Virus record (IMG/VR): IMGVR_UViG_3300043470_000815 | Length of the DNA stretch: 64,000 nt | Source of the DNA: a virus | Strand: one strand, 5' to 3' | Part shown: piece after piece, positions 5,407 to 63,175 of the stretch | Layout of the letters: each line of letters opens with the position of its first letter | Position numbering within the stretch: position 1 is the stretch's first letter | Translations under genes and position numbers: made by a program | Notes under the pieces: generated by a model | Databases searched by the model: none | Told to the model about the DNA's origin: nothing | Seen by the model: the letters and a program-made list of their open reading frames with translations, nothing else

Positions 5407-7413
5407 TTACAAAGGAATATAATCAATATTATTATAATACGAAAGTATGCCCTCCAGCGAAGTCTCCCAATCCGAGTTACTAAATGTGTGGGTGACTTTT
5501 ACAACCATGAAGTACGAATTATATTCATTTCGCCACGCAGACGGTACTTGTGTTGTTGAAATAGCATTTCCCGGTTCAATTCCCCACACCCCATTTATTG
5601 TTATATTCATCGAAAGTCCCGGATAATGGACTGTGGAATGTTCAACCGTTTTTTCATCATTTTTATTTAAACGTCCCATCACTGATTTCAAGGCATTTAT
5701 TTCGGTATCATTGAAATAGTTTGTTCCAAGATTTCCCGGATTTTTAATAATTGAAAATCTATCTGTTCGGGCTTTTTCGTGTTCATTTGACCGTTGTGCT
5801 TTTAATTTAGGTGAACAACCACGCAGGGTAGAAATAGCATCACCTTTTTTACTTGTACCAACAAACATTGATGCTTTATATTCTTCCGACCCAACATTAC
5901 TTTGTACCTCACAAGTTCTAGTATTTCCATCGCCGTCAATAGGATCAAAAATAATACATTTTAATGTTCCAGTAACACCGTAATTCTGATCCACAACAAT
6001 TAAAGTACTGTTATTGTCGGGGTTTTCAACTAATCGCAATGAAATAGCACCACCAGTACAAGATGATATTTGGTCACTTATTTTTTCAAAAAAGTGAATT
6101 ATATTTACGACCTGCTCTTGTGTATCTTTGACATCCGTATTATCCGATTCAGATTTGCGGGGTTGAGTTGCTGCTGTATAAGCAGACGAAATAACGTCAC
6201 GATGTAATAAAATATTTTGTAGATGAATATTTCCTTGTCCTAAATTACACTTAACAGCCGCTAAATTCTTACAATCTTTATCAAAATCTTTACCTTTATT
6301 TTTAACATTAAGGTAATTTGCCTGACCCAACATCAACATATGTATCGGATCACCTGAAATTATACCATCGGCCACTCGACATTTGGAATATTTTGGATGA
6401 AATTCTACTTTTACTTTATTAAATTTATCGCGTTCGTGGGCAACGTGACAAGTGAAAGAACGTAATAATTGATCGTTAATTATTCGATTAACAATGTAAC
6501 CCAATGAAACATAAACTTGGTTGTTAGCCACTTCTACTTCACTTTTACCACCAACCACTCCCTTCATAATTCCGCCCACCCAAGCCATACCACGTTCCGC
6601 TAAATTGCGTAAATGATCTCCAGTGTAAACTACTATTGCGGCACTGTTATCAAATGAACCGGGATTATAATCCACGAAATTTGTTATTACCTGCCCATCT
6701 TCTATATCATCAATACTTGTTTGCCCGTTCCCTTGTGCGTCCGATGCAATTAATTGGGCAACACCTTTAACAGCATTTATTTCATTATCAATACCTGTTT
6801 TATATTTTAACGGCCCTGAATCACCCGATTGTCCCGACCCACCCAAAGCATTACAACCATTACAAATAACCAATTGCATTTCTAAATTTTCAATTGCCGT
6901 TGATGCACTCACAGCGGTAAATGAACAAATCCAAAAACCTTCACTTGTAGTATTGAATGAAAATGTCGCAACTTTAAAACCATCCAACCTTGTTGAACTG
7001 TTATTTGCCCAACTATTTTTGTAACCAAATGTAACATCTATTTCGTTTCCCGGTAATAAAAAATATTTTTGTATTGCTTCAAAATCATATACCGTAAAAC
7101 ACCTGATACTTGCAGATATTCTACGTGCTAAACCCCAAGTTCCAGCATATTCCAATTTAACAGTTTCTAATTGCGGTTTGGGTTTAAATGAATTTCCATA
7201 ATTAGATTGCCAAGTATCCCGTTCGGCTGGTAAAGTTCGTGAACCCCCACCACCACATGATTTATTATGACCCGTTATTTTTACAAAACATGGATTTCGA
7301 TCTTGAACCGATTTACCACCAATTGTTTGCGTTCCATTCAATAATCCACGACGCTGTTTGATTATTTCAAATACGTTATTGGTTGGATTTCGTCGGTATA
7401 ATGATTCTGACAT
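5407..7413 (-). CDS. putative baseplate hub (gp27/gpD-like) structural protein
   Basis: 668 aa, beta-rich, C-terminal ITINGVWGIEPG..I...VP..W....F.VVKVTH.F....WETSLEG typical of hub-like folds; near TMP. Confidence 0.55.
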   Translation of the reverse strand: MSESLYRRNPTNNVFEIIKQRRGLLNGTQTIGGKSVQDRNPCFVKITGHNKSCGGGGSRTLPAERDTWQSNYGNSFKPKPQLETVKLEYAGTWGLARRISASIRCFTVYDFEAIQKYFLLPGNEIDVTFGYKNSWANNSSTRLDGFKVATFSFNTTSEGFWICSFTAVSASTAIENLEMQLVICNGCNALGGSGQSGDSGPLKYKTGIDNEINAVKGVAQLIASDAQGNGQTSIDDIEDGQVITNFVDYNPGSFDNSAAIVVYTGDHLRNLAERGMAWVGGIMKGVVGGKSEVEVANNQVYVSLGYIVNRIINDQLLRSFTCHVAHERDKFNKVKVEFHPKYSKCRVADGIISGDPIHMLMLGQANYLNVKNKGKDFDKDCKNLAAVKCNLGQGNIHLQNILLHRDVISSAYTAATQPRKSESDNTDVKDTQEQVVNIIHFFEKISDQISSCTGGAISLRLVENPDNNSTLIVVDQNYGVTGTLKCIIFDPIDGDGNTRTCEVQSNVGSEEYKASMFVGTSKKGDAISTLRGCSPKLKAQRSNEHEKARTDRFSIIKNPGNLGTNYFNDTEINALKSVMGRLNKNDEKTVEHSTVHYPGLSMNITINGVWGIEPGNAISTTQVPSAWRNEYNSYFMVVKVTHTFSNSDWETSLEGILSYYNNIDYIPL

Positions 7414-7414
7414 T

Positions 7415-8104
7415 TTATTTTAAATTTTTATTTACTAAAACAATTTTATCGGGATCATCAACTATTCCAAGTTTTAAAGTTTTTGCCGAATCCCTAAATT
7501 GTTGGGGTGGTGTTTTGAACCATGAATCATTGGTTGAAAAATAAAATGGTTTATCTTTAGTACTCATATATTTTTCTAATTTTTCCGATGGTTTAACAGT
7601 CCACATATAAACTGGACGACTGCCATGAAAATATCCATATATATGTATAGTATCCTTGGATGGTGGTTGACCATGTGTACTTACATTATGCGTAGGTGTG
7701 ACATAATCATTACCTTCCACCGCGTTTATTTTATTCATTTTTTCGATAAAATATGCGTCATGTACAACCCGCCACTTACCATCTAAATATGGTTTTATTC
7801 GACGTGCAACAATATTTGCCTGAACATAATGAATTGTTTCATGGAACACCACTGGTCTTAAAAATTTATCATCATCTACAAAATCTTTATTTATTTTTAA
7901 AACGGGATTAACAATATGACCAGTACGTGGTTGATATACAAACAATCCAGCCTTAGTTGGCATACTTGTAATTGAAAACTTAGGAATACCCCATTCTTGT
8001 ATATCAGAATAATATTCGGGAAAGTATTTTTGCATACATTCCTTGAAAAAATATTCTAATTTTGAAGTAGATGTAACTTCATTTAAGATTGTTTTTAATT
8101 TCAT
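7415..8104 (-). CDS. SprT-like zinc metalloprotease with MKLKTILNE leader
   Basis: VFHETIHY HExxH plus distal H (VVHDAYF); start moved to MKLK at 8104. Confidence 0.75.
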   Translation of the reverse strand: MKLKTILNEVTSTSKLEYFFKECMQKYFPEYYSDIQEWGIPKFSITSMPTKAGLFVYQPRTGHIVNPVLKINKDFVDDDKFLRPVVFHETIHYVQANIVARRIKPYLDGKWRVVHDAYFIEKMNKINAVEGNDYVTPTHNVSTHGQPPSKDTIHIYGYFHGSRPVYMWTVKPSEKLEKYMSTKDKPFYFSTNDSWFKTPPQQFRDSAKTLKLGIVDDPDKIVLVNKNLK

Positions 8105-8105
8105 A

Positions 8106-8624
8106 TTACGAATAAATATTTGCATCATTTTCATCCCATGACCCATCATTTTTTACTGATTTGATTTGACTTGGATTAAACGTGACTACCCAATTTCCCC
8201 AAATAAAACCATCATAACCATTTTTTTCTAATAAATCACTAACATCCTCCCAAGGTACACCTTTGGCATCGGGAATAATTTCAAATATTTGTTCTTTTTT
8301 TTCCTTTGCCCATTCTACTGTACCATCCGAATTTGCTATATCACTTTTTATAATAAACGGATTTTTAACAGATAAATAAACTGATAATATTTTACTACCA
8401 TAAGTTTTTGCATCATTTTTATGTTCTGTGAAATAAAAACCTTTTGACAACCATCCCGATCTTTTTTTAGATATGTCAAATTTATCAAAATCTATATTAG
8501 TTCCATGATAATAAATCATTGGTTTACTACCATTGGTTACTTTACTATTCCCAAACCATTTTTTGAAATTAGCGTTTAAATTAGATTCACGCAAAACTTC
8601 ATTTAAGATTTTTTTTAATTTCAT
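8106..8624 (-). CDS. ADP-ribosyltransferase-like (ART-PolyVal type) protein with MKLKKILNE leader
   Basis: F..WFG.SKV, YYHGT..DFDKF, GFYFT, VYLSVKNP, GYDG. Confidence 0.7.
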   Translation of the reverse strand: MKLKKILNEVLRESNLNANFKKWFGNSKVTNGSKPMIYYHGTNIDFDKFDISKKRSGWLSKGFYFTEHKNDAKTYGSKILSVYLSVKNPFIIKSDIANSDGTVEWAKEKKEQIFEIIPDAKGVPWEDVSDLLEKNGYDGFIWGNWVVTFNPSQIKSVKNDGSWDENDANIYS

Positions 8625-14905: not shown

Positions 14906-15100
14906 ATGAACTATAACGAATTAGAACAAAAAGCAGACCTTGTTTGGTCAACATTAAATAGCATCGAAAACCAAGATAAATCAAAACGTGAACAAATGAA
15001 TTTGATTAAAACCATTTTACTTCAAATGGCAGAAGAACAACGCGAGGTTGGTAGAAATCAAATAAAAAACTTAATTTCAGAAACTATTAAAAATGTCTAA
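14906..15100 (+). CDS. hypothetical early protein
   Basis: First ORF after the promoter, AT-rich leader. Confidence 0.65.
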   Translation: MNYNELEQKADLVWSTLNSIENQDKSKREQMNLIKTILLQMAEEQREVGRNQIKNLISETIKNV

Positions 15101-15179
15101 AAATCTATTAAAACTCGCCGCAATTATATTTGTGGCTGCATTCTTTATATTATTAACTTATAACGCAATTTTTGAATAA
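15093..15179 (+). CDS. 28-aa membrane peptide (not in ORF track)
   Basis: MSKNLLKLAAIIFVAAFFILLTYNAIFE fills the gap between neighbours. Confidence 0.5.
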   Translation: MSKNLLKLAAIIFVAAFFILLTYNAIFE

Positions 15180-15182
15180 CTT

Positions 15183-15401
15183 ATGAAACTTACAAAGGAA
15201 ATATTACTTAAACTTGGTTTTGATGAAAATGGTAAAATTTATACAAGATGGAAGTTAGACCTACATGAACATGAACAAGGAATTTTTTCTTTTCACGAAG
15301 GACGTATTTATTTTGATGTCGAAACTGTTGAAAAATTACATCAACTTTGGATAATGATTAACGCAGAAGATCAAATGCCATTACCAATAAACGAAATATA
15401 A
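15183..15401 (+). CDS. hypothetical protein
   Basis: 72 aa, MKLTKEILLKLGF...TVEKLHQL pattern. Confidence 0.65.
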   Translation: MKLTKEILLKLGFDENGKIYTRWKLDLHEHEQGIFSFHEGRIYFDVETVEKLHQLWIMINAEDQMPLPINEI

Positions 15402-15415
15402 ATTATTATAAAAAA

Positions 15416-15757
15416 ATGAATATTAAAATAAAATTAGAACAACGGGTTTACCGTAAAAGTCAAAAACCCGATCCACAGGATTTAATTAATAATATTATTT
15501 ATACATTTTGTAACAGGTCGGTTGGGGGAGTTTATCGGAACAATGATAATATGTATATGTTTCACTACGAAAAACACAATAAAAAAGTTATCAGTAGGAA
15601 ACGAACCAAAGACAAAACTGGTAAATATCCAAGTAAAACGGTTTCTATAATCGTTCCTGCCTACTGGAAGATCACAGTTACAATTATTCCACACGAAGTA
15701 TTGAAATTGATGAATAAAAAAGTCAAGCAGAATTTACGGAATTGGGAGTTCGTTTGA
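15416..15757 (+). CDS. hypothetical basic protein
   Basis: 113-aa ORF in operon. Confidence 0.6.
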   Translation: MNIKIKLEQRVYRKSQKPDPQDLINNIIYTFCNRSVGGVYRNNDNMYMFHYEKHNKKVISRKRTKDKTGKYPSKTVSIIVPAYWKITVTIIPHEVLKLMNKKVKQNLRNWEFV

Positions 15758-15894
15758 TAAATCAAATGGACAGTTAATTTATTTAATTTATTAAATAAAC
15801 TTTTTAGTTCGTTTAATTTTAAAAATTAGGTAGGGTGGTTTACCAACCCAACGATTAAATATAATCATTCTATGGATAAATATTAATAATTAAT

Positions 15895-15946
15895 GTTAAC
15901 ACAAAGTTAATAAATTAATTGTTTGGTGGGTAAGAATATACTTATA
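15895..15946 (+). promoter_or_regulatory. GTTAA-N6-GTTAA class promoter upstream of the candidate ncRNA
   Basis: GTTAA at 15895 and 15906; degenerate -7 (TACTTATA) at the 28-nt position. Confidence 0.45.
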
Positions 15947-15950
15947 AGTA

Positions 15951-16370
15951 ACCGTTGTTCCACAGCACAATACAGCGGACGGATGTTGACTACTTAATCC
16001 GTGAATCAAAAGGCTTGTTACATCATGGCTTTGAAAAATAAGAGGTTTTGTAACGTTGGATATAGTCAATTTAAAAAATATCCATTTTCCGTAGGGAACT
16101 AATAATTCCTGATAATCAAACATGCAATGCTTTCCAAATGTGGGCGGCGTTGCATTTATTGTTTTATTTTCCCTTTGGGTTAACAAAGGGTACAAGCCAC
16201 AATACCGTATTATATAGATCACTCTCGCACTGTTTCTAACGGGATAACAACGAGGACTGCATGTTTACTTAATGTTTCATTTATCTATATAATATGTTAA
16301 AACCGAATTATAGCAGGGCGGAACGTATTGTTGGTTGGTGGGTTAGATTTATATTCCATCTAACAACCTA
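15951..16370 (+). ncRNA. candidate structured non-coding RNA
   Basis: No credible ORF; at least 8 stems and a loop-loop complement GTTGACTA/TAGTCAAT; terminal hairpin 16342-16364; strand inferred from the promoter. Confidence 0.5.
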
Positions 16371-16462
16371 GTGTATTTTACCTTAAAAGATTGATTATTC
16401 TTTCTTTTTTCTTAAATGGGTAAATATGCAGGGATAAATCCCGTATTATACCATATTTAAGT

Positions 16463-16514
16463 GTTAATTAGTTGTTAACAGACTTGTATAATACCAACCA
16501 ACCACCTATCTTTG
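16463..16514 (+). promoter_or_regulatory. Bacteroidota-type early promoter with GTTAA boxes
   Basis: GTTAA-N6-GTTAA-N4-CTTG-N20-TATCTTTG. Confidence 0.8.
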
Positions 16515-16591
16515 TAATGTAAAATTAAAGGATCGAATATGAAATTCGATTTAATATTTTACTTTTTGTAATCAAAATCAATTATAAAGAT

Positions 16592-16885
16592 ATGACAAGT
16601 CAAGAAATTTGTTTAGAAACATTGAAACAGTTGGGTGGTAATAAGTTCATCGTTATGACTGGAGCAAAATGTATTAGTGATGGTAATACACTCATTGTAA
16701 AATTCAAAATGTGTCCAAAGGCGAATATTATGTACATCACATTGAACGGTAAAGATTTATACGACGTGAAAATATGTAAATTTCGCGGTATGGAAGTCAA
16801 AACCGTTGCCGAACTTAACGATGCGTATTCTGATATGTTACGCCCATTTTTCACCGAAACAACTGGATTATATACCAGTTTGTAA
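16592..16885 (+). CDS. hypothetical early phage protein
   Basis: QLGGNKFIVMTGAK...LYDV...FTETTGLYTSL, a pattern recalled from other phage early regions. Confidence 0.7.
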   Translation: MTSQEICLETLKQLGGNKFIVMTGAKCISDGNTLIVKFKMCPKANIMYITLNGKDLYDVKICKFRGMEVKTVAELNDAYSDMLRPFFTETTGLYTSL

Positions 16886-16909
16886 TTAATTTAAAAATAT
16901 TAAAAATAA

Positions 16910-17173
16910 ATGAAGAAATTTACACAAGCACCCATTGGTTTGGGTTTTCATTGTTTAGAACACGAAACATCTATTGCGTACATTTGGAACGAATTAGTTG
17001 ATAAAAACCTCCCACCCAATTCTTTATGGGAATGTACGCCAATTCGATTACATAATATACAATGGGCAAAAGATGGTGTAACATTGTTAAGTATGGGAGC
17101 AGTTATTCGAGAAGGTGATATGTATAAACTGTCGGATTGGGCAATAGAAAAAATTAATAAATTTTTAGCATAA
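16910..17173 (+). CDS. hypothetical protein
   Basis: Operon-packed ORF. Confidence 0.6.
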   Translation: MKKFTQAPIGLGFHCLEHETSIAYIWNELVDKNLPPNSLWECTPIRLHNIQWAKDGVTLLSMGAVIREGDMYKLSDWAIEKINKFLA

Positions 17174-17174
17174 T

Positions 17175-17486
17175 ATGAATTTTAAAAATTTCAAATTATA
17201 TAGATGGTTACTTGGGGGTGGTTGGTCACAAAAGTCCGATAAAACATGGGTTTGGTGGCCAATAATCGGTCAGGCAATTGCATACCAACAGGAAATCGAA
17301 AAGTTTCAACGCTTTGAAAAATATACTTGGTGGTTGAAAATAAAATATAAATTTTACAATCACAAACAAAAACGTGTATTTTGGAAAAAACAAGGTTATT
17401 TACCGCAATGTTGGACTGAAAATGAAGCACATTTATATACACCTGAATCGTTTGTACGTTTTGAACGACATTTTTTTGAATTATAA
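17175..17486 (+). CDS. hypothetical Trp-rich protein
   Basis: Operon-packed ORF. Confidence 0.55.
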   Translation: MNFKNFKLYRWLLGGGWSQKSDKTWVWWPIIGQAIAYQQEIEKFQRFEKYTWWLKIKYKFYNHKQKRVFWKKQGYLPQCWTENEAHLYTPESFVRFERHFFEL

Positions 17487-17914
17487 TGAAAAATAAAGAT
17501 ATTATCCGAAAAATAAATTATTTAGTTTACAATTCCCGATGTTCGCATTTGGGGAGGTGGGATTCTGATAAATTCTTTAATCCTGAATATTTAAAAACAT
17601 TTACTGATGATAAATTTCATGGCAGGTTAAATTTTAATTGTCACGAATTGTATGATTTATTCAAATTATCGGGAATGACACATAATGAATTTCGGGAAAT
17701 GGTGGAAGGAATTTCTTTAACCAAAAATGAAAATAAAAATTTATTAAAAGGTTCACCACCCAAGGAATCTCGTGACAATAAAACTGTTAGGGTCGGGAAT
17801 GGTCGAAACAAAAATCCAAACACAATTCGATTTCCAAAAAAGTGTAGGAAAACTGCTTGGAAACGATTTTATAAACTTTTTCCAAATTTAGAAAATGAAA
17901 AAAATATATCTTAA
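17486..17914 (+). CDS. hypothetical protein
   Basis: Coupled start/stop with neighbours. Confidence 0.65.
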   Translation: MKNKDIIRKINYLVYNSRCSHLGRWDSDKFFNPEYLKTFTDDKFHGRLNFNCHELYDLFKLSGMTHNEFREMVEGISLTKNENKNLLKGSPPKESRDNKTVRVGNGRNKNPNTIRFPKKCRKTAWKRFYKLFPNLENEKNIS

Positions 17915-18323
17915 TTACAGTTCCAAAGACCGCCATTTAGTCGATAAATGTATTCCACATCTAAAATCATTGGGTGAATTATGGTCAGTTGACAACTTAA
18001 ACGCTGGAGACATTATTGACAAAACAATCACAAAAAAATGGAACGAATCTGATTTTATATTGGAATTTATTTCAAGTGATTTTATAAATGAACCTTGCTT
18101 TAATATAGAGCCAAATAACAAATTATTAATTGGAATCTATCTTAGACCTTGTTCATTTGAAGACGTGGAAGGTAGGTGGGAATGTGTACTGCCATTTGAC
18201 GCGTTAAATTCAAGTACTGACTTTGATTCATCGTTGAATGAAATTATTAAGTATTTAAAAGATAATATCAATTCAATTGATACAGAGTTCCGATTAAAAA
18301 ATTACCTAAACGAAAATGTATAA
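17895..18323 (+). CDS. TIR-domain protein
   Basis: IYLNYSSKD, LW..DNL.AGD....I...W.ESDFILEFISSDFI..PC...E, IGIYLRPC.F match the bacterial TIR_2 pattern. Confidence 0.8.
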   Translation: MKKIYLNYSSKDRHLVDKCIPHLKSLGELWSVDNLNAGDIIDKTITKKWNESDFILEFISSDFINEPCFNIEPNNKLLIGIYLRPCSFEDVEGRWECVLPFDALNSSTDFDSSLNEIIKYLKDNINSIDTEFRLKNYLNENV

Positions 18324-18807
18324 ATATTTAGCAATATTTTTATTATCAATTATCATTATATTTTACGATTATATATGTGTATTGATCTATAAAAAATCAC
18401 ATCATATTGCCATTGAAAATGCTATAAGAAAAATTGATAAACGGAATATTCAAATAAAATATATTTTCGATAAAAGTACATTAGTAGCAGCAACCAACCT
18501 AGTTGATAATAAACCATTTTATTATATCAATGTGACACAAGATTCGTTTTTAACAGCGGAATTAATCGCATACCATGAATATATGCACCAAAATATGTAT
18601 CCTAAAAAATATTCTAAACGTGTCGAAGAAGCAATTGTTGGGATTGGAACATATTATTATTCAATGGTCGAATATGATACAGCAATGCAACGACAATGTT
18701 TATTGGCATCTTATCCAGCGTTTGAAAAATTAACCAAAATCGAAAAAGATACAGTTTTAGCCTACAATTATTACAATTACACTCACACTTTTATTCAATC
18801 AAATTAA
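18316..18807 (+). CDS. membrane-anchored HExxH metallopeptidase-like protein
   Basis: N-terminal hydrophobic helix; AYHEYMHQ followed by VEEA. Confidence 0.55.
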   Translation: MYKYLAIFLLSIIIIFYDYICVLIYKKSHHIAIENAIRKIDKRNIQIKYIFDKSTLVAATNLVDNKPFYYINVTQDSFLTAELIAYHEYMHQNMYPKKYSKRVEEAIVGIGTYYYSMVEYDTAMQRQCLLASYPAFEKLTKIEKDTVLAYNYYNYTHTFIQSN

Positions 18808-18817
18808 TTTAACAACA

Positions 18818-18934
18818 ATGATTTTAACCGCAATTATTATTTTCGGTGCATTAGCACTCGTTTGGTATTTATCACCAACCAACCCATCCAAACCAAATGA
18901 TGACTGGAATCACTATAACGACATGAACAACTAA
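18818..18934 (+). CDS. 38-aa membrane peptide (not in ORF track)
   Basis: MILTAIIIFGALALVWYLSP... Confidence 0.5.
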   Translation: MILTAIIIFGALALVWYLSPTNPSKPNDDWNHYNDMNN

Positions 18935-18961
18935 ACCAAAACTTAAAAATTTTAAAAAAAA

Positions 18962-19321
18962 ATGACAAAATTAACATTTAAAGAACTGGAAGAAATTATC
19001 AATTCGGATTTATTTGAAGAAAATGATTTATACCCACGTGCATGGATGCACGAAGAAGTGTATGAAAATGCCGATCAAATTGACGACAATCCTGAACTGT
19101 TTACCGAATATTCAAAATTGGGTAAATATGAAATGGTCGAACATCATGGCGGGATGGATGAAGGTAGTGATTATTACACGATTTACCATTTTATTGACCA
19201 TGATATTTACATTCAGTTCCAAGGTTGGTACGCAAGTCATCATGGATCAGAATACAATGAAATGTTTGAAGTTAAACCTTACGAAGAAGTTGTTACGAAA
19301 TATAAACAGGTTGGTGAATAA
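18962..19321 (+). CDS. hypothetical phage protein
   Basis: GG.DEGS.YY, GWYASHHGS, EVKP.E.VVTKY. Confidence 0.7.
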   Translation: MTKLTFKELEEIINSDLFEENDLYPRAWMHEEVYENADQIDDNPELFTEYSKLGKYEMVEHHGGMDEGSDYYTIYHFIDHDIYIQFQGWYASHHGSEYNEMFEVKPYEEVVTKYKQVGE

Positions 19322-19356
19322 TTAATAGGAATTTATCATTATAATGATAAGTTCTT

Positions 19357-19408
19357 GTTAACAGTTAGTTAATGGACTTGTGGGATAGGTTGGGAGGTCG
19401 TATCTTTG
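19357..19408 (+). promoter_or_regulatory. Bacteroidota-type early promoter with GTTAA boxes
   Basis: GTTAA-N6-GTTAA-N4-CTTG-N20-TATCTTTG. Confidence 0.8.
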
Positions 19409-19439
19409 TATCATTAATAAACAACTAAATAATTTAATT

Positions 19440-19955
19440 ATGATTTTTTTAAAAAATAAGTACGAAGATAATGGCGTTATATACGCTACTAACAATGAAA
19501 TTGAAACATTAAACGTTTCTGATTGTTACGATTCAAATGGTCAACAAATTGGTCACGATGATGCTGGTGATTATATCGAATTGACTGATGAATCACACGC
19601 CGATTTTGCAAATGAATTTACTGAAAGTAGTGAATACGTGGTTGGTGATTATGTCCATGCGTTCGATTCGTGGCAATTATTCAACGCTTTAAATGAAAAT
19701 TTTGAAGATGTTGTTGAACACACAACCTGCCAAGGTTTTAATGTGTGGGATGGACATAATTGGAAATCAATTATTGTTAATACCCAAATCGGTGAACCTG
19801 AATGGTCTATTGTGGATTTTGACGAAAATGAATTAGAAGATATGGAAGAAGTTCGTACTGGTAATGGTTTCACTGTTTATGAAACTGATAAGTACGAAAT
19901 CACATCTAGTCAATTTGTAGATGCTTGGGAAACATATTCAATAATTGAAAAATAA
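19440..19955 (+). CDS. highly acidic hypothetical protein
   Basis: About 39 D/E versus 6 K/R in 171 aa. Confidence 0.7.
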   Translation: MIFLKNKYEDNGVIYATNNEIETLNVSDCYDSNGQQIGHDDAGDYIELTDESHADFANEFTESSEYVVGDYVHAFDSWQLFNALNENFEDVVEHTTCQGFNVWDGHNWKSIIVNTQIGEPEWSIVDFDENELEDMEEVRTGNGFTVYETDKYEITSSQFVDAWETYSIIEK

Positions 19956-19970
19956 AATAAATAAAAAAAA

Positions 19971-20192
19971 ATGATATTAGTTAACACTGATGAAATGATG
20001 TACTTTAAGGATTTTGAATCTTTAAAAGATACATATCCCAATGCGTATAATGTACCTGACAAATACCCTTGCTATGGGTGGTTTATTTGTACAAATTATG
20101 ACGGTAATGGTATTGGACGACCAGTTCTAGGATATGTTTATCCCGAATCAAATTTTGATGGTATAACGATTAATAACGCTGTATTTTTGTAA
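19971..20192 (+). CDS. hypothetical protein (P.KYPC.GW...RP.LGY)
   Basis: Paralog of the following interrupted ORF. Confidence 0.65.
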   Translation: MILVNTDEMMYFKDFESLKDTYPNAYNVPDKYPCYGWFICTNYDGNGIGRPVLGYVYPESNFDGITINNAVFL

Positions 20193-20896: not shown

Positions 20897-21229
20897 TTAC
20901 TTTTTATTTGTGATTTCAAATTCCTTTAGGGAATCTTTGCGATTTTCATTAGCGATTTTCAAAAATTCAGGTGCGGCTTTAAATGTTACGACCATCCTAG
21001 CAGGAGTTTCCCATTTAGCACCAGTTGGGGCAAATGTTCCACTTCGCTTTTGACGCGATTCGATATTAAATGTACCTAAACCTTTGTATTCGACACGTCC
21101 TTCACTTGCTGTATGTTTAGCAGTCAATTTTAAAAATGTTGAAAAAACTTCTTCAATAACATCTATATCAATGTTAGTTTCGTTTACAATATCTTTAAAT
21201 AGGTCTTTTTTATTATATTCAGTTTTCAT
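20897..21229 (-). CDS. HU/IHF-like DNA-binding protein
   Basis: VEYKGLGTF...R..R.G..P.TG....PA..VVTFKA. Confidence 0.88.
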   Translation of the reverse strand: MKTEYNKKDLFKDIVNETNIDIDVIEEVFSTFLKLTAKHTASEGRVEYKGLGTFNIESRQKRSGTFAPTGAKWETPARMVVTFKAAPEFLKIANENRKDSLKEFEITNKK

Positions 21230-21722: not shown

Positions 21723-22196
21723 TTATGCGTATAAAGCATAATCATAAGAAATTGTTATTGTGGCTTGTGTAACATCATCTGTTCCACGATCCATATCACC
21801 CCACGCAACCGAGGTGTAAAATGCACCAACCAATGTCCATGTACCAATCGGAACTTCGGCTGGATTTAGAACCATGATTTTTAAGTCATGTTTGTAAACT
21901 GGTGCATAGGTATCAGTGGCACTTGAAACTGCTTGATGTTGTTGGAGATATTGCCATAATTGTAAAGATGTTATTCCTTCAAACTTATAGGCTTGTAATG
22001 TAATATCATCCCAACGCAATTTTCCTTTAACTTTAAAATATGAGTTAACATATTCAACTGTTACTGGAGCAGATTGGGCGGTTGGTTGTTGGGCAGAACG
22101 GCAATAAAACGCCGCACCTGCTAATTTTGAAGTCGTGACCATATACCGAAATTGTAATTCGGGGTGGAACGCTTCGGGTACAAGTAATCTTGGCAT
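21723..22196 (-). CDS. tail tube protein (T4 gp19-like)
   Basis: FHPELQFRY, VKGKLRWDDIT, W.LVGAF, TITISYDYA; follows the sheath gene. Confidence 0.9.
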   Translation of the reverse strand: MPRLLVPEAFHPELQFRYMVTTSKLAGAAFYCRSAQQPTAQSAPVTVEYVNSYFKVKGKLRWDDITLQAYKFEGITSLQLWQYLQQHQAVSSATDTYAPVYKHDLKIMVLNPAEVPIGTWTLVGAFYTSVAWGDMDRGTDDVTQATITISYDYALYA

Positions 22197-22205
22197 GTTT
22201 TAATC

Positions 22206-24053
22206 CTATTCTTGTGCATCCACTGGAAATAAAGCACCTGTTGGTAATACTACGAAGTCAACGATGATAAATTCCGCAGTTTTAGCGGGTTTTAAGTAAA
22301 TTTGTGCTCTCATTTCGTTACGATCCACCACATCGGGGGTATTGTTACGTTCATCAATGATTATACGGTAATCGTACAAACCCTGTTGGTTTTGAACCCT
22401 ACGGAAATACGGATCGACTAATTCTAAGAACCTAGCACGTGTTTCAATTGTATTGTTTTCAAATACTAAATATTTTGTAGTAAATGCAACAAAACGTTTT
22501 GCGTCAATCAATAAACGACGTACATTGATACGATCTAATGCCGAACGTTTTTTCTGTAATGTTTTTTGACCCCACACACAGATTCCAGTTCGTGGGAATG
22601 TAGCGATTGGATTAACCGATTTAATATATAAATTATCACGATCATTTGGAGTCATTAAACGTTCTGTTTGTAGAACTGTATCCAACACACCACGATTTAA
22701 ACCTGCTGGTGCGTACCAAGGATGTGCAACCGCATCATTAAATGAATAAACGGCTGATACAACGGCGGAGGGTGGAAGCCAAATGTTTCTACCTAAATCG
22801 GGGTCGGGTATTTGACACCAAGGGTAGTACATAGCCGCGTAATTTGTATTACGTTGTTCGGCTGCTATTTGTGCCTGTCCAACTGTTGAACCCTTGTATG
22901 TCGGATCAATAACATACATTGTGTCACCACGATCTTCACAAAGGTTAATACCACGCGTAATCAATGAACTATGGGCTGTTAGGTTGTCCATCAAACCCGG
23001 TGTAAATAACAAGTCAACGTCGTATTGGTCGCGATTAGATAAAATATCAAAAGCGTCTTGGTATGCTGATGCACCACTGGCGGGTTGTGCTAAGTTAAAA
23101 CCTTGGGTGTTGTTATTCCAAATCTTTTCATTCATTGCACGTGGATGAACTACGTTACCATCACTACCACCACTAAATGTACCCGAAACTGCTGCTGGTA
23201 ATGAACCTGATAACGAAGCATCACGAACCTGACCATTTGAATTTAGGTAATTTAATGTATTACGAACATTTTCAATTCGTATAAAGCGTGAACGATTTGG
23301 ATATGAACCCGACCGTTCCAAATAAGGCGAACCACCCGAATCATAACGTAAAGTATTAACTTGATCGCCAATAACTTTAGTAATATAATTTGATGTATTT
23401 GGGTCTAATGAAATTCCCGTATATTGTTCAATTATAATTTTACGATTGGAAATATCATCGGCACGACGAATATATAAATCAAATGTACCGCGATTTGGAT
23501 CAACATTGGCAATTTCCCACCTAATTCCATATTGTGAACCTGATAGCAATACACCACCCGTTGATTCATCGGCTGCTACACCTGACCCCGAAATACTTGC
23601 ACTTGCACGACCACTGTTTGTAATTTCACCATCGGTTAAGGCAACAATTTTGAATGCCATTTCGTTTGCCGAATACGTCACTGAACCTGAACTTGCAGTA
23701 CCCAATAACGCATACGAACTAGATTGATGTACAAAAGAACTGGCTGGTTGATAATTACCCGCCAAAATACGTGTCACAGTACACGTTTTACCATACCTTA
23801 AATATTCTTGAACACACGTAGTTGTTAAATATTTATACATTTGTTCACTCGCACCTGAACCCGATGTGAACACGTCACCAAACCACCTAATATATTCTGA
23901 ATATGTAGAAACAGGGGTTGGTACTAATGCAGGGCCTCTAACTGTTGGGCCGATAACCGCTGCTCCAACCGCTTGAATTTCTAGCGGTAAGAAAGAAAGG
24001 TCAAATTCCCTTGTAAAGACACCCGCCGAAAGAAATACATTCGCATTTGCCAT
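22206..24053 (-). CDS. tail sheath protein (T4 gp18-like)
   Basis: SAGVFTREFD, YYPW, WYAPAGLNRG, VNPI..FP..GI.VWGQKTL, RINVRRLL, P.KTAEFI. Confidence 0.95.
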   Translation of the reverse strand: MANANVFLSAGVFTREFDLSFLPLEIQAVGAAVIGPTVRGPALVPTPVSTYSEYIRWFGDVFTSGSGASEQMYKYLTTTCVQEYLRYGKTCTVTRILAGNYQPASSFVHQSSSYALLGTASSGSVTYSANEMAFKIVALTDGEITNSGRASASISGSGVAADESTGGVLLSGSQYGIRWEIANVDPNRGTFDLYIRRADDISNRKIIIEQYTGISLDPNTSNYITKVIGDQVNTLRYDSGGSPYLERSGSYPNRSRFIRIENVRNTLNYLNSNGQVRDASLSGSLPAAVSGTFSGGSDGNVVHPRAMNEKIWNNNTQGFNLAQPASGASAYQDAFDILSNRDQYDVDLLFTPGLMDNLTAHSSLITRGINLCEDRGDTMYVIDPTYKGSTVGQAQIAAEQRNTNYAAMYYPWCQIPDPDLGRNIWLPPSAVVSAVYSFNDAVAHPWYAPAGLNRGVLDTVLQTERLMTPNDRDNLYIKSVNPIATFPRTGICVWGQKTLQKKRSALDRINVRRLLIDAKRFVAFTTKYLVFENNTIETRARFLELVDPYFRRVQNQQGLYDYRIIIDERNNTPDVVDRNEMRAQIYLKPAKTAEFIIVDFVVLPTGALFPVDAQE

Positions 24054-49715: not shown

Positions 49716-51131
49716 TTACAATAGCCATTTTAAACTTTCGGAATGATTGCCTATTCTTTGCTCCCATGCTGGATGACTTTGTTTGGCTGGATTGTAAACG
49801 TTTTTATGAACATTAGTTATTGATTGTTTAACTAATTCAATACCCATCTGCCTAAGTCGTAACGCGGTATCACGCACATATAAAAACATACAAAAACATA
49901 GTACTAAATCGTCATTGTAGCCGTTTTGTGCTTGTGGTTTACCATTGATCCACATAAATACACTGAATTGATTTATAAGTCGTTTAGAGTGTATAATTGG
50001 ACTTTTTTCACGGGTGTACATTTCTAGTTTAGAAATCATTACAGGTCGTAATACGTGGGTGGTTGTAAAGCCCGGAATCATATCTTCTTTATTTTTCAAA
50101 TCATACCGTTTCATTAGATGTATGTTTTCATCTAAATAAGGATCGTTCTTATAACTATAATATAAATTTTTGTAGCCTTTATCTAAGCACACTTGAACGG
50201 TTGACCACCCAATGTTTTTATTGTCAATTACTAATAACGCATCGTTGTATTCAGTCGCCACACTTACCAACATATTACCAAACATATTAGTATCAATTTT
50301 ACCTTCATATTCAGCCACTTGTTCCAAAGATTCCACGTCCATGACAATAAATGCACTACTATCTTCACCATCCCCACGTGCAACGTCAGCGACAACACAA
50401 TAAGATTTTGTATAATCGGGATATTTCCAAATCCAATAATCACCACCAATACCACGCCGCTCGGTTGGGTCGGTAGTTTTTTCGCGATAATATGCTAATA
50501 TATCAGATTCTATTACAGTGTGACCCGATGTTTCAAAAACGCAATCATTCTCTTGGGCAGCCATACGCTTACCCATCAATTCATCTTGTAAATCACGCCA
50601 TTTTTGGTCACGGTCAGGATGTCGTTTCCAATCTAAACGAATTGGGTTAAATGCACCAAATCCATCTTCTTTAATACCTTCTTCTGCCTGACACCAAAGT
50701 TTATAAAATATACCTTGAGCACCGTTTGGAGTTGATAAAATTATTGCATTACCACCTGTTGCCAATGTCATTTGAGCCGATGTCCAAATTTCATTAGCAC
50801 TTTCCATAAACGCACAATTATGACTAACTAAACCATTCGTGAAATATTCATTATTTAATTTAACATCTATTACATCATATACATAAAAATCCCCTTCCTC
50901 ATAAGAAATTTCACATATTACGTCACCCCCCCACAATTCATCACCAATCAAACAAAAACTTGCTTCTAAAAATTGTCCGTTTGGATATTTTAATAAATGA
51001 CCACTTGTACATTTTAATATATTATTGTTTGTTTTAATTGTAAATAAAATATCAGTGGTAGTTCGTTGTACACCATCAAAATCACTCCAACCATCAGGGG
51101 TTAATATTAAATAGTCATTATTATTTTTCAT
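49716..51131 (-). CDS. terL: terminase large subunit C-part, preceded by a 105-aa C-intein
   Basis: ...NGLVSHN/CAF junction, ILSTPNG, ADVARGDG.D.S, A..GYNDDLV. Confidence 0.93.
   Translation of the reverse strand: MKNNNDYLILTPDGWSDFDGVQRTTTDILFTIKTNNNILKCTSGHLLKYPNGQFLEASFCLIGDELWGGDVICEISYEEGDFYVYDVIDVKLNNEYFTNGLVSHNCAFMESANEIWTSAQMTLATGGNAIILSTPNGAQGIFYKLWCQAEEGIKEDGFGAFNPIRLDWKRHPDRDQKWRDLQDELMGKRMAAQENDCVFETSGHTVIESDILAYYREKTTDPTERRGIGGDYWIWKYPDYTKSYCVVADVARGDGEDSSAFIVMDVESLEQVAEYEGKIDTNMFGNMLVSVATEYNDALLVIDNKNIGWSTVQVCLDKGYKNLYYSYKNDPYLDENIHLMKRYDLKNKEDMIPGFTTTHVLRPVMISKLEMYTREKSPIIHSKRLINQFSVFMWINGKPQAQNGYNDDLVLCFCMFLYVRDTALRLRQMGIELVKQSITNVHKNVYNPAKQSHPAWEQRIGNHSESLKWLL
50817..51131 (-). 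mobile_element. split intein C-fragment (105 aa)
   Basis: ILTPDGWSDF, block B CTSGH, block F YVYDVIDV, block G NGLVSHN followed by Cys. Confidence 0.92.
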
Positions 51132-52197
51132 AAAATTGCCTCATTGCATATTTTACGGTTGGATGGTTGGTTAAATCAATTTTATTGATATTTTTTTTGA
51201 ACCATTTATTTGTTATCAGAACATATTTTAAATTATTGTCTTTGGCATATTTTTTTGCAAATTTATATTTTACTAAATTTCTTTCAGTATTTTTCTCCGA
51301 ATCGGGTTTAATTTCGTATATAATTTTATTTATAGGATCGTAGAAATCTACAATATAATTGTGCCAATTATCTTGATATGTATATTTTATTCTAATTTTT
51401 TCATATTCTAATTGTGGATTACACAACCAAAAAAACGCATCCCAATTACTTCTAAATTTTTTAACAGTTCCATCTTCCAAATTTACAATAGCATTCCAAC
51501 GTGTCCATGAATTAGTTATACATGGAGTAAATTCACCATTTGCAATCATTAACTTCATTGTTTCTGAATGCTTTTTATGAGTGGCTTCTGTATATATGAA
51601 TGGACGACGTTTTTTAAATTCGTCTGAATTACTTGTAATTTTATTGGATTCTGATAATTTTTTTTTCGTTTCTAATGTATGCCAAGGTTTTCCGTTTGAT
51701 CTCCTAGTTTCTATACCTTTTTGAATTGATTCTTTGGAAAAAACTTGATTTTTTCGATTTATACGCATTTTCATTCGTTGTTCATCTGAAAATGTTCTAG
51801 TTTCAAGATAATTCATAAATCGGTCTTTAATATTTTTCTTATTTTCATCAGACATATTTTCATAGGCTTTTTTACCACTTTCCGAACCCTGCTTACGTTT
51901 ACATTCTCTATTGGTGCAATTATTTCGGAATAACGCACTATTTTCATTGAATGCTGTTTTATTATCACAATATTTACATTTTACAATATCAGTTTTGTAA
52001 TGTTTAATATAAGTTATTCGTTCTTTTAATGATACATTGTAACTATTTAAAAATGTGGTAGATGAATATATCATTTTATAAATATATTGTATATCATTTT
52101 TTACATACCATTGTTCATTTAATGCCCAATGGATCATTTTATCATTCTTAAAAATTTTATCAATTATAATATTATAATCATTCATCTGTATATTCAT
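51121..52197 (-). CDS. free-standing endonuclease inserted in the terminase intein
   Basis: CKYC..C....C Zn motif, NUMOD3-like H..ET.KKLSES repeats, C-terminal RS.W...EYE..RI.Y...NY.VDF....IYEIKP PD-(D/E)xK. Confidence 0.8.
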   Translation of the reverse strand: MNIQMNDYNIIIDKIFKNDKMIHWALNEQWYVKNDIQYIYKMIYSSTTFLNSYNVSLKERITYIKHYKTDIVKCKYCDNKTAFNENSALFRNNCTNRECKRKQGSESGKKAYENMSDENKKNIKDRFMNYLETRTFSDEQRMKMRINRKNQVFSKESIQKGIETRRSNGKPWHTLETKKKLSESNKITSNSDEFKKRRPFIYTEATHKKHSETMKLMIANGEFTPCITNSWTRWNAIVNLEDGTVKKFRSNWDAFFWLCNPQLEYEKIRIKYTYQDNWHNYIVDFYDPINKIIYEIKPDSEKNTERNLVKYKFAKKYAKDNNLKYVLITNKWFKKNINKIDLTNHPTVKYAMRQFYEK

Positions 52198-52768
52198 ATA
52201 AAGTTTTTATTTTAATATTTTCAACTATACCAGTTTTTCTATTTTTAATGGTAACAACTGTTTCACCATCCACGCATTCATCCAAAATCAATAAACTAAC
52301 AGCCGAACCGCGAGCGGAATCGGGTTTACTTGACACTGCTTTAATTTGCGACCCATTACTTAAAACTAATTCTAATTTATTATTATTAGTGATTTTAGCA
52401 ACATTTCGCATCCACACAGGTAAGTTATCGTACATCACTTGAACCATTTTTACAATATTTCGAGCAACATCCTGTTTGGTCGCAATAATAAGAATTTTGA
52501 AATTCTCTTTGAATAACATTTGTTGCAAACTGTACATTGCAGTCAATGTACTTATGCCCATCTGCCTAGATTTCAAAACAATATTGAACCTATGATTTTG
52601 GAAGTCTAATAGTGTAGAAACTTGAAAAGGGTATAGATCGAACTTGATCTTACCCTTCATTGGATGTTCAATCATGCAATATTCCTTAGAAAAATATGCA
52701 ACATCGGTGGCACATCGTTCTAATTCTTGCTTAATTACATCACGTATATTTTGCGTTTGACTAGGAAT
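52178..52768 (-). CDS. terL: terminase large subunit N-part plus 32-aa N-intein; probable ATT start
   Basis: LYPFQ, KSRQMGIS (Walker A region), ARG..VSLLILDE (Walker B) then CVDGET; frame open 31 codons upstream of the tracked ATG (52675). Confidence 0.88.
   Translation of the reverse strand: MPSQTQNIRDVIKQELERCATDVAYFSKEYCMIEHPMKGKIKFDLYPFQVSTLLDFQNHRFNIVLKSRQMGISTLTAMYSLQQMLFKENFKILIIATKQDVARNIVKMVQVMYDNLPVWMRNVAKITNNNKLELVLSNGSQIKAVSSKPDSARGSAVSLLILDECVDGETVVTIKNRKTGIVENIKIKTLYEYTDE
52181..52276 (-). mobile_element. split intein N-fragment (32 aa)
   Basis: CVDGETVVTIKNRKTGIVENIKIKTLYEYTDE* is intein block A. Confidence 0.9.
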
Positions 52769-62334: not shown

Positions 62335-62739
62335 TTACATATTAGCAATTTTTCTATCCATTTCATCTGCCGCAATTAACGCCATACGTTCAATGTCATC
62401 TACCTTCAATTTCATCTGTTCCGCACCAGTCTGCCAATATTTACGAAAATCATTGTTGTTTTTATTTACAAGTGATCTTGCTTTATTCTGTAACCCTGTC
62501 ATATAACTAAAAAATTCTTCTTTATTGGATAATCTATATTTTGCCAAAAATTCTTTTGCTATTGTTGCATTTTGATTTATATAATCAAAGGCTTTTATTT
62601 GAACCATTTTTCTATTAGACATACTTCCAGCAATTGAAAATAAGTTTTGTATCATATCATCAACTGATTTAGTTGGTTTTATATCACCAAAATCCAATAT
62701 ATTATTATTTAATTCATTTAAAATTCGTCGTAATTTCAT
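62335..62739 (-). CDS. protein with MKLRRILNE leader
   Basis: Shared leader motif. Confidence 0.65.
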   Translation of the reverse strand: MKLRRILNELNNNILDFGDIKPTKSVDDMIQNLFSIAGSMSNRKMVQIKAFDYINQNATIAKEFLAKYRLSNKEEFFSYMTGLQNKARSLVNKNNNDFRKYWQTGAEQMKLKVDDIERMALIAADEMDRKIANM

Positions 62740-63175
62740 TTTTAATTTTACCCTTATAAAATTTTGTATTTGCTATGTGTTTGTTGTAAGAATCTACAAA
62801 TAAAACATCGAATTTTATCTGAAAATACATTTCGTAAAAACTGACATCCGTTTTATTATCCAAAAATAACAAAATTTCACGTGAAAAGTTTTCTTGCCCC
62901 AACAATTTTATATCGGCTTTCAAATCGTCACTGCTACCCCAATACGTTTTCCAATCCGTTTCTTTAACGGATCGTTTAAAAGTTTTACGTTTGTTTTCGG
63001 GTAGAAGTTTTTCTTTTTTTGTTAGCCGAACTTTACGGTTGCTGGATAACATTTTACGCCCGATGTAAATTTTATTATACTGCTCTAAATCTTTATTAGT
63101 GCAAGTAATTTTGTAAATATACCCAATGGCGGTTTCAGGTATTTCAAAATCTTGGTTATTTTGGTATGTCCACAT
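62714..63175 (-). CDS. GIY-YIG-like endonuclease
   Basis: GYIYKIT, KIYIGRK, WKTYWGSS, F.REIL. Confidence 0.8.
   Translation of the reverse strand: MWTYQNNQDFEIPETAIGYIYKITCTNKDLEQYNKIYIGRKMLSSNRKVRLTKKEKLLPENKRKTFKRSVKETDWKTYWGSSDDLKADIKLLGQENFSREILLFLDNKTDVSFYEMYFQIKFDVLFVDSYNKHIANTKFYKGKIKNEITTNFK

Follow-up and report, generated by a model that had tools for sequence, protein, structure and literature searches.

Type II Thoeris systems comprise a small stand-alone TIR protein, ThsB, and a Macro-TM ThsA partner, and they signal by means of His-ADPR (as in B. amyloliquefaciens, bioRxiv 10.1101/2024.01.03.573942). Roughly 29 putative Thoeris types pair a TIR protein with small transmembrane (TM) effectors or with effectors of unknown function. 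A Phe in strand βA and a Glu form the catalytic pair (PMC12578639). According to the same study, Sau-ThsB1 can dispense with its own catalytic residues and acts via a hetero-TIR complex.

The TIR pocket is composed of βA, the AA and BB loops, αB, and αC (Manik et al.). AbTir and BtTir were assayed as NADases in that work, in which the AbTir mutant E208A is dead and the BB-loop Gly of AbTir is essential. Activity also depends on Y207 in αC and on the inter-strand BCD interface. An aromatic residue at the W204 position is present in all cyclising TIRs and is tied to ADPR cyclisation, whereas TIRs that produce only ADPR conserve this aromatic less strongly.

TIRs are rare in viruses, and those described are NCLDV copies and TIRs of Firmicute phages (Iyer et al. 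2022, PMC9503650). The Firmicute phage TIRs are encoded with a 2TM SLATT protein, sometimes in neighbourhoods that include a zincin-like peptidase, and they were proposed to limit superinfection. A TIR is also combined with a SLATT protein, ThsH, in type VII Thoeris (Yirmiya et al. 2025).

In the literature that we searched, phage counters to TIR immunity work mainly downstream, in that the signal is sequestered or degraded or NAD+ is rebuilt. Proteins of these kinds dominate the anti-Thoeris papers of that search, which include no TIR homologue. Among TIR effectors of pathogens, BtpA/TcpB is described as interfering with host TLR signalling via TIR-TIR contacts, and the title of its PDB entry calls it an immunosuppressor.

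A TIR gene among the tail genes of a freshwater myovirus

The window, by which we mean the whole 64,000-nucleotide stretch of DNA that was analysed (IMG/VR virus record IMGVR_UViG_3300043470_000815), encodes a tail sheath, gp19-type tube, tape measure, major capsid protein, portal, terminase, and S77 prohead protease. These genes bear out the statement of a preliminary description of this DNA that its TIR gene is phage-encoded. The phage is an uncultured myovirus with T4-like morphogenesis and a genome of ~187 kb. Its sister contigs measure 187-188 kb, and the window shows only about a third of the phage genome. The capsid protein is ~50% identical to its counterparts in Microcystis phage Mel-JY01 (190 kb) and in the Flavobacterium 'immuto' phages (160 kb). 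The window stretch is found repeatedly in lake-water metagenomes from many studies of 2020-2025.

The TIR gene is located in an island of small accessory genes within the structural region of the phage, between the tape-measure and sheath genes, and not in a bacterial defence island (Table 1). The previously given strand, length, and end points of the ORF are exact. The upstream neighbour, whose end overlaps the TIR start, has no Pfam, PHROG, or PADLOC match. A megablast search of the island against phages returned no match.

Table 1. Positions in the window of the TIR gene, its elements and surroundings, and other features mentioned in the text
Feature	Position	Strand	Basis or remark
Minimised TIR-domain gene, stand-alone, 142 aa	17895-18323	+	ORF list, subfamily HMM, AF2, Foldseek, dN/dS
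βA end and AA loop, Y5 to invariant D12	17907-17930	+	Column statistics
BB loop, residues 31-40, with invariant G38	17985-18014	+	Ortholog variation, column statistics
αC remnant, residues 61-76, PCFNIE with E72	18075-18122	+	Alignment, spacing count, ortholog variation, AF2 secondary structure
E72 codon, GAG	18108-18110	+
Upstream 142-aa ORF, family unassigned	17486-17914	+	20-nt overlap with TIR start
Downstream TM/HExxH ORF, 163 aa	18316-18807	+	8-nt overlap with TIR stop
HEYMH codons of TM/HExxH ORF	18574-18588	+
Small accessory-gene island, ~13 genes	14906-20192	+	Set between - strand tail genes
Gap without ORFs inside the island, 834 nt	15758-16591
Tape measure, 1662 aa	9419-14407	-	One flank of the island
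Tail tube and sheath block	21723-24053	-	Other flank of the island
HU/IHF-type DNA-binding gene	20897-21229	-	PF00216, E 1e-16
ART-PolyVal ADP-ribosyltransferase	8106-8624	-	PF18760, E 9.5e-23
Neighbour of ART-PolyVal gene	7415-8149	-
ORF near major capsid gene, 676 aa	37417-39447	-	PHROG homing/HNH-endonuclease match, E 6.5e-101
Large terminase region, seemingly split	49716-52675	-
Terminase C-terminal part	49716-51131	-
TnsA-like ORF, 358 aa	51121-52197		Between the terminase parts
Terminase ATPase N-terminal part	52178-52675	-
SegE-like GIY-YIG endonuclease	62714-63175

The gene content of the island differs among related phages. In a 188-kb sister phage (L001), extra genes flank the TIR gene on both sides (5652-6029 and 6425-7099). 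The first, of 125 aa, lies between the upstream ORF and the TIR gene, and the second, of 224 aa, is inserted between the TIR gene and the TM/HExxH gene. Neither has a Pfam match. The presence of these two additional genes indicates that the island is a hotspot of gene exchange. The 224-aa protein is rich in Cys residues, including a C-x2-C-C-x2-C-x2-C cluster. In addition, the similarity of one 2.5-kb metagenome contig (run X3, contig record 4) to the window is confined to 18 and 24 nt flanking the TIR gene (window 17885-17902 and 18444-18467). The two short matches are separated by 522 nt in that contig versus 541 nt in the window, and the contig may carry, at the TIR position, an allele that has diverged strongly or a cassette that replaces the gene.

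Sites resembling σ70 promoters number 37 versus 39 expected from shuffles. For the T4 late motif TATAAATA, the count is 22 versus 17.9 expected, which is the chance level. Across the window, no Rfam family scores above threshold. The island itself includes a long stretch that is devoid of ORFs (Table 1).

Identification of the TIR domain

Standard models recognize the phage ORF only in part. Pfam TIR_2 (PF13676) aligns to residues 4-72 with 23 bits, which is under its 28-bit gathering score, and the PADLOC ThsB model PDLC00420 matches residues 1-75 only (E 1e-7). No other Pfam family matches the ORF, and neither PHROG nor NCBIfam does; one ortholog (P0003) has a weak precomputed TIR_2 match. 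By contrast, residues 2-131 are covered by an HMM that was built solely from 51 non-phage TIR_2 proteins (84.4 bits, E 1.3e-25), and this HMM finds no other TIR in the window. An exhaustive profile search returned 151 matches, and all ten of those scanned are TIR_2 proteins above threshold. A profile search of the PDB with a shallow alignment produced only noise.

The predicted structure agrees with the cellular HMM and the alignment, in keeping with the initial assignment of the ORF as TIR_2-like. An AF2 model based on a 55-sequence alignment reached a pLDDT of 87.9 and a pTM of 0.82, whereas input of only four close orthologs gave a pLDDT of 52, and that model was discarded. Its five parallel strands (βA-βE) and its helices follow one another as βA-αA-βB-αB-βC, a single helical turn, βD, βE, and αE, the last being long. 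The best Foldseek matches in the PDB are PdTIR, BtpA/TcpB, BtTir, TIR-STING, TLR1/10, AbTir, and SARM1 (E 4e-5). VIA-align likewise ranks TIRs highest, with Z scores of 13.2-12 (Hydra TRR-2, SPARTA TIR-APAZ, RUN1). The AlphaFold comparison with TIR structures that the preliminary description proposed therefore yields a TIR/flavodoxin-like fold.

The sister DrHyd fold also aligns well (Z 11-12), which raised the possibility that the ORF is a nucleoside 2'-deoxyribosyltransferase/DNPH1 (DrHyd) protein. This identity was rejected because every sequence-profile match is to TIR_2. The phage ORF is a genuine stand-alone TIR-domain protein.

Cellular relatives

The nearest cellular relatives that were scanned are all TIR_2 proteins. 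They match PDLC00420 over the full domain (E 1e-23 to 2e-68), whereas this model covers only the N-terminal half of the phage protein. One relative, P0085, is 142 aa in length and 33% identical to the phage TIR, and its gene immediately follows that of a Macro-type ThsA (E 1.6e-27), so this locus (L006) is type II Thoeris. Another, P0116, precedes a STAND NTPase gene, and other matches are TIR-TPR, TIR-kinase, and TIR-STAND fusions. These varied contexts indicate that the parent subfamily is a TIR module common to several TIR-based defence systems, and not to Thoeris alone. The phage TIR derives from this ThsB-type TIR_2 subfamily (type II Thoeris, TIR-STAND).

The best-scoring cellular match, P0004, is a metagenomic protein of 1921 aa with an unusual architecture, comprising five tandem TIR_2 domains and a poly-gamma-glutamate hydrolase domain.

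Retained active-site residues and loss of αC

The phage TIR retains much of what is expected of an active site. The P67-C-F-N-I-E72 segment noted earlier is present, and its Glu occupies the conserved-Glu column (Glu in 152 of 174 domain instances), aligned to E208 in the W-T-N-Y-E motif of AbTir. The βA aromatic that faces it is Y5, where 94% of the family have Phe. D12 and the BB-loop residue G38 are also kept, in columns conserved in 170 and 158 of the 174 domain instances, respectively. The catalytic Glu, the facing aromatic, and the BB-loop Gly are all found in the right columns, and Y8, W30, S60, R84, C86, and L99-P100 are kept as well.

The helix after the Glu is indeed shortened, as had been suspected. 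The spacing from the Glu column to the βD Pro column is 7 residues in the phage TIR, and ~9 residues of αC after the Glu are deleted. Cellular instances have 10-19 residues in this interval, and 149 of the 170 have 16. The phage deletion is found in 0/170 cellular TIR instances and is unique among all 174 domain instances. The AF2 model has a single helical turn (67-70) in place of αC. The Ser column of αC (S or T in 160/174) is deleted. The aromatic column precedes the Glu by four residues and is Y, F, or W in 148/174, but the phage orthologs carry P, P, F, or S there (position 67). The full αC with its Ser-x-aromatic (W204-equivalent) motif is therefore absent. Other changes are S7 to N and P80 to G.

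Compared with ThsB of type II Thoeris, the phage protein is likewise a small stand-alone TIR of the TIR_2 subfamily to which PDLC00420 belongs, and both have the Glu, the βA aromatic, D12, and the BB-loop Gly. It differs in that no ThsA-type effector is nearby, the Ser-x-aromatic motif is absent, and αC is shorter by ~9 residues. The preliminary description had offered three roles for the protein: decoy, NAD+ or signal modulator, and exclusion effector. Loss of αC and of the cyclisation aromatic speaks against a canonical signal cyclase and tips the balance slightly towards a decoy or interfering protein, and the exclusion idea is kept alive by a conserved membrane-protein gene next to the TIR gene.

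Orthologs and selection

Six orthologous phage sequences or fragments were found, all on syntenic phage contigs and 80-98% identical. The phage clade is fully supported, and its stem, at 1.03 substitutions per site versus a median of 0.11, is longer than any other internal branch of the TIR tree. Comparison with the L001 ortholog gives a dN/dS of 0.25, which is within the range of neighbouring genes. In four independent lake metagenomes, the TIR variants comprise 8 synonymous and 3 non-synonymous changes and no indels, and five or six lineages have an uninterrupted reading frame. The phage TIR gene is under purifying selection and is functional.

The least variable parts among orthologs are the β-strands, βC and βD included, and residues 27-40, which correspond to βB and the BB loop. 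Only 2 of these 14 positions vary, no position of βD does (0/8), and L99-P100 is kept. Position 67 is the most radically variable. Diversifying selection at the αC remnant is not claimed, because substitutions do not cluster there: 5 of its 16 positions differ among orthologs, which is average.

Neither the phage TIR (tblastn, E<=1) nor a canonical member of the subfamily (P0126) matches any of 50,697 phage records. Scans of IMG/VR and of 185,579 species genomes also revealed no relative of the phage TIR.

The downstream membrane-protein gene

The protein encoded downstream of the TIR gene has a single TM helix, near its N-terminus, and its HEYMH motif is invariant. Its gene follows the TIR gene with an 8-nt overlap in the window, in four related contigs (L002-L005), and in two others (L012 and L013), in which the part that precedes it is a TIR C-terminus. 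The protein matches no Pfam, PHROG, PADLOC, or PDB entry and no peptidase family, and comparison with ThsA_Macro by hhalign gives a probability of 0.2%. Leads from the Atlas all score below 0.9 and include small DUFs and IrrE-like proteins. None of eight island ORFs matches SLATT at E<=1. No catalogued Thoeris effector adjoins the phage TIR, whose neighbours lack PADLOC, Pfam, and PHROG assignments.

Possible functions of the phage TIR

The reading that we put forward, as a possible one of which we are far from sure, is that the phage protein, as a non-cyclising TIR, interferes with host TIR assemblies by capping or poisoning them. In solved TIR assemblies, the BB loop and the βE/αE surface make up the head-to-tail BE contact as well as half of a composite active site. 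The phage TIR keeps the BB loop and the 'LP' residues of the βE/αE surface, and might therefore still make this contact. Loss of αC would deprive it of a wall of the NAD+ pocket and of some of the inter-strand BCD contact, and without the aromatic needed for ADPR cyclisation, it would not be a canonical signal cyclase. If made during infection, it could dock on host TIRs of the same subfamily, or on the phage trigger that these sense. Such docking would terminate or poison the assembly on which signal production depends, so that Thoeris-like or TIR-NLR immunity would be blunted.

The distribution of change in the protein best fits an interfering role, in which the TIR would still dock head-to-tail on other TIRs but would fail to complete a productive assembly. 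The BB loop, βD, and L99-P100 are strongly conserved among orthologs, αC and the cyclisation aromatic are lost on a long branch that is nonetheless under purifying selection, and the gene lies in a variable island of small accessory genes. Sau-ThsB1, which acts without need of its own catalytic residues, is a precedent for function through contacts with other TIRs. However, E72, Y5, D12, and G38 are all kept, which equally suits an active hydrolase. Because the orthologs are so close, little can be concluded in either direction from the persistence of E72 in the clade. A conserved membrane-protein gene follows the TIR gene in most lineages, an arrangement typical of TIR defence modules and not of a lone inhibitor.

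No phage TIR decoy is described in the literature that we searched, and the prior for one consequently rests on analogy with pathogen TIR effectors such as BtpA/TcpB. BtpA/TcpB, PdTIR, and AbTir are among the top structural matches to the phage TIR. Those effectors differ in having a full αC with W-x-x-x-E and in acting on eukaryotic hosts, whereas the presumed target of the phage protein is bacterial immunity.

A fuller evolutionary scenario is somewhat more doubtful. It is conceivable that the phage captured a host ThsB-type TIR and deleted αC, giving a chain-terminating subunit that caps Thoeris or TIR-NLR assemblies. The protein would then be the first viral TIR mimic in prokaryotes, and it would act at the sensor or assembly step instead of sequestering a signal.

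An alternative, which we consider unlikely, is that the TIR and TM/HExxH genes form a phage-borne, Thoeris-like module in which the TIR senses or signals and the membrane protein is the effector. This module might exclude competing phages or time cell death. The overlapping pairing of the two genes and the TM gene's recurrence after the TIR gene in other contigs fit this idea, as do the invariance of the HEYMH motif and TM helix and the retention of E72, Y5, and G38. A similar pairing is seen among the putative Thoeris types with small TM effectors. Another precedent is the Firmicute phage TIR-SLATT arrangement with its occasional zincin-like peptidase (PMC9503650), since here too a phage TIR lies beside a membrane protein, in this case one with an HExxH motif. 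However, the neighbour of the phage TIR has one TM helix and no SLATT match, the TIR is of a different version, and the phage is a large lake-water myovirus with T4-like morphogenesis and not a small Firmicute phage. The 224-aa gene inserted in L001 indicates that tight coupling of the TIR and TM genes is dispensable. Moreover, because all these phages are closely related, the adjacency may be mere inherited synteny. The neighbour also matches no known effector family, and the aromatic required for cyclic signals is missing from the TIR.

Judged from its residues, the phage TIR could instead be an active, non-cyclising hydrolase of NAD+ or of an NAD-derived signal, which would remodel host NAD+ metabolism or would destroy or compete with immune signals. 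We regard this as unlikely too. The Glu, the facing aromatic, D12, S60, and the BB-loop Gly are kept, the gene is under purifying selection, and the weaker conservation of the W204-position aromatic in ADPR-only TIRs would accommodate its loss. The phage also encodes an ART-PolyVal ADP-ribosyltransferase, and thus has a second NAD+-using enzyme, which places NAD+ chemistry within its repertoire. On the other hand, a drain on NAD+ would compete with this same ADP-ribosyltransferase. The missing αC is a wall of the pocket, mutants of AbTir in αC or the BCD interface are inactive (Manik et al.), and none of 170 cellular domains has a comparable deletion. NAD-consuming TIRs are also significantly under-represented in viruses (PMC9503650).

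A catalytically silent sponge, whose remnant nucleotide pocket sequesters TIR-made signals such as His-ADPR or cADPR isomers, is less plausible again. In the TIR/DrHyd/SLOG class, members that lack activity serve as sensors of nucleotides (PMC9503650), and the anti-Thoeris proteins covered by our literature search mostly sequester signals. Tad1, Tad2, Sequestin, Lockin, and RyR-like sponges resemble the phage TIR in their presumed aim, evasion of TIR signalling, and in their setting in accessory-gene hotspots. However, their folds are unrelated, they sequester or degrade the signal, and none is homologous to a host TIR; the phage TIR matches none of the Tad1, Tad2/DUF2829, Sequestin, or Lockin families in Pfam or PHROG. 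TIR pockets are completed between two subunits, and here the αC wall is missing. Finally, a functionless passenger, that is, a captured TIR gene in decay, would account for the long branch, the deletions, and the lost family motifs, but it is very improbable, being contradicted by the selection data (a dN/dS near that of neighbouring genes, intact frames in five or six lineages and four metagenomes, and an 8:3 ratio of synonymous to non-synonymous changes without indels) and by the confidently predicted fold.

The TIR domain itself and rare viral TIRs were already known. What is new, in view of the survey of viral TIRs by Iyer et al. and the anti-Thoeris literature, is a phage-encoded, ThsB-derived TIR without αC. 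If the interfering reading is correct, retention of the assembly loop together with loss of αC would amount to dominant-negative interference with TIR assembly, a strategy different from the downstream counters of other phages. It would parallel the way in which pathogens are thought to act on TLR signalling in animals. If the protein is instead an active enzyme or part of a module with the membrane protein, rare virus-encoded TIR systems extend to large freshwater myoviruses. In either case, it is a natural minimal TIR (~130 residues, no αC) that could separate the elements for assembly from those for catalysis, and it is amenable to heterologous testing with cloned Thoeris systems.

Other features of the phage genome

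A gene for an HU/IHF-type DNA-binding protein is located just downstream of the island, where it heads the tail tube and sheath block. The ART-PolyVal gene is situated among baseplate and tail genes, and it is adjoined by an ORF with a weak SprT-like match (21.6 versus 25.6 bits).

The phage genome is rich in mobile nucleases. The large terminase is seemingly split into an ATPase N-terminal part and a C-terminal part, and between the two lies an ORF with a TnsA-like endonuclease domain, which is probably a mobile endonuclease insertion. A long ORF by the major capsid gene has a strong match to homing/HNH endonucleases, and a SegE-like GIY-YIG endonuclease is encoded near the end of the window (Table 1).
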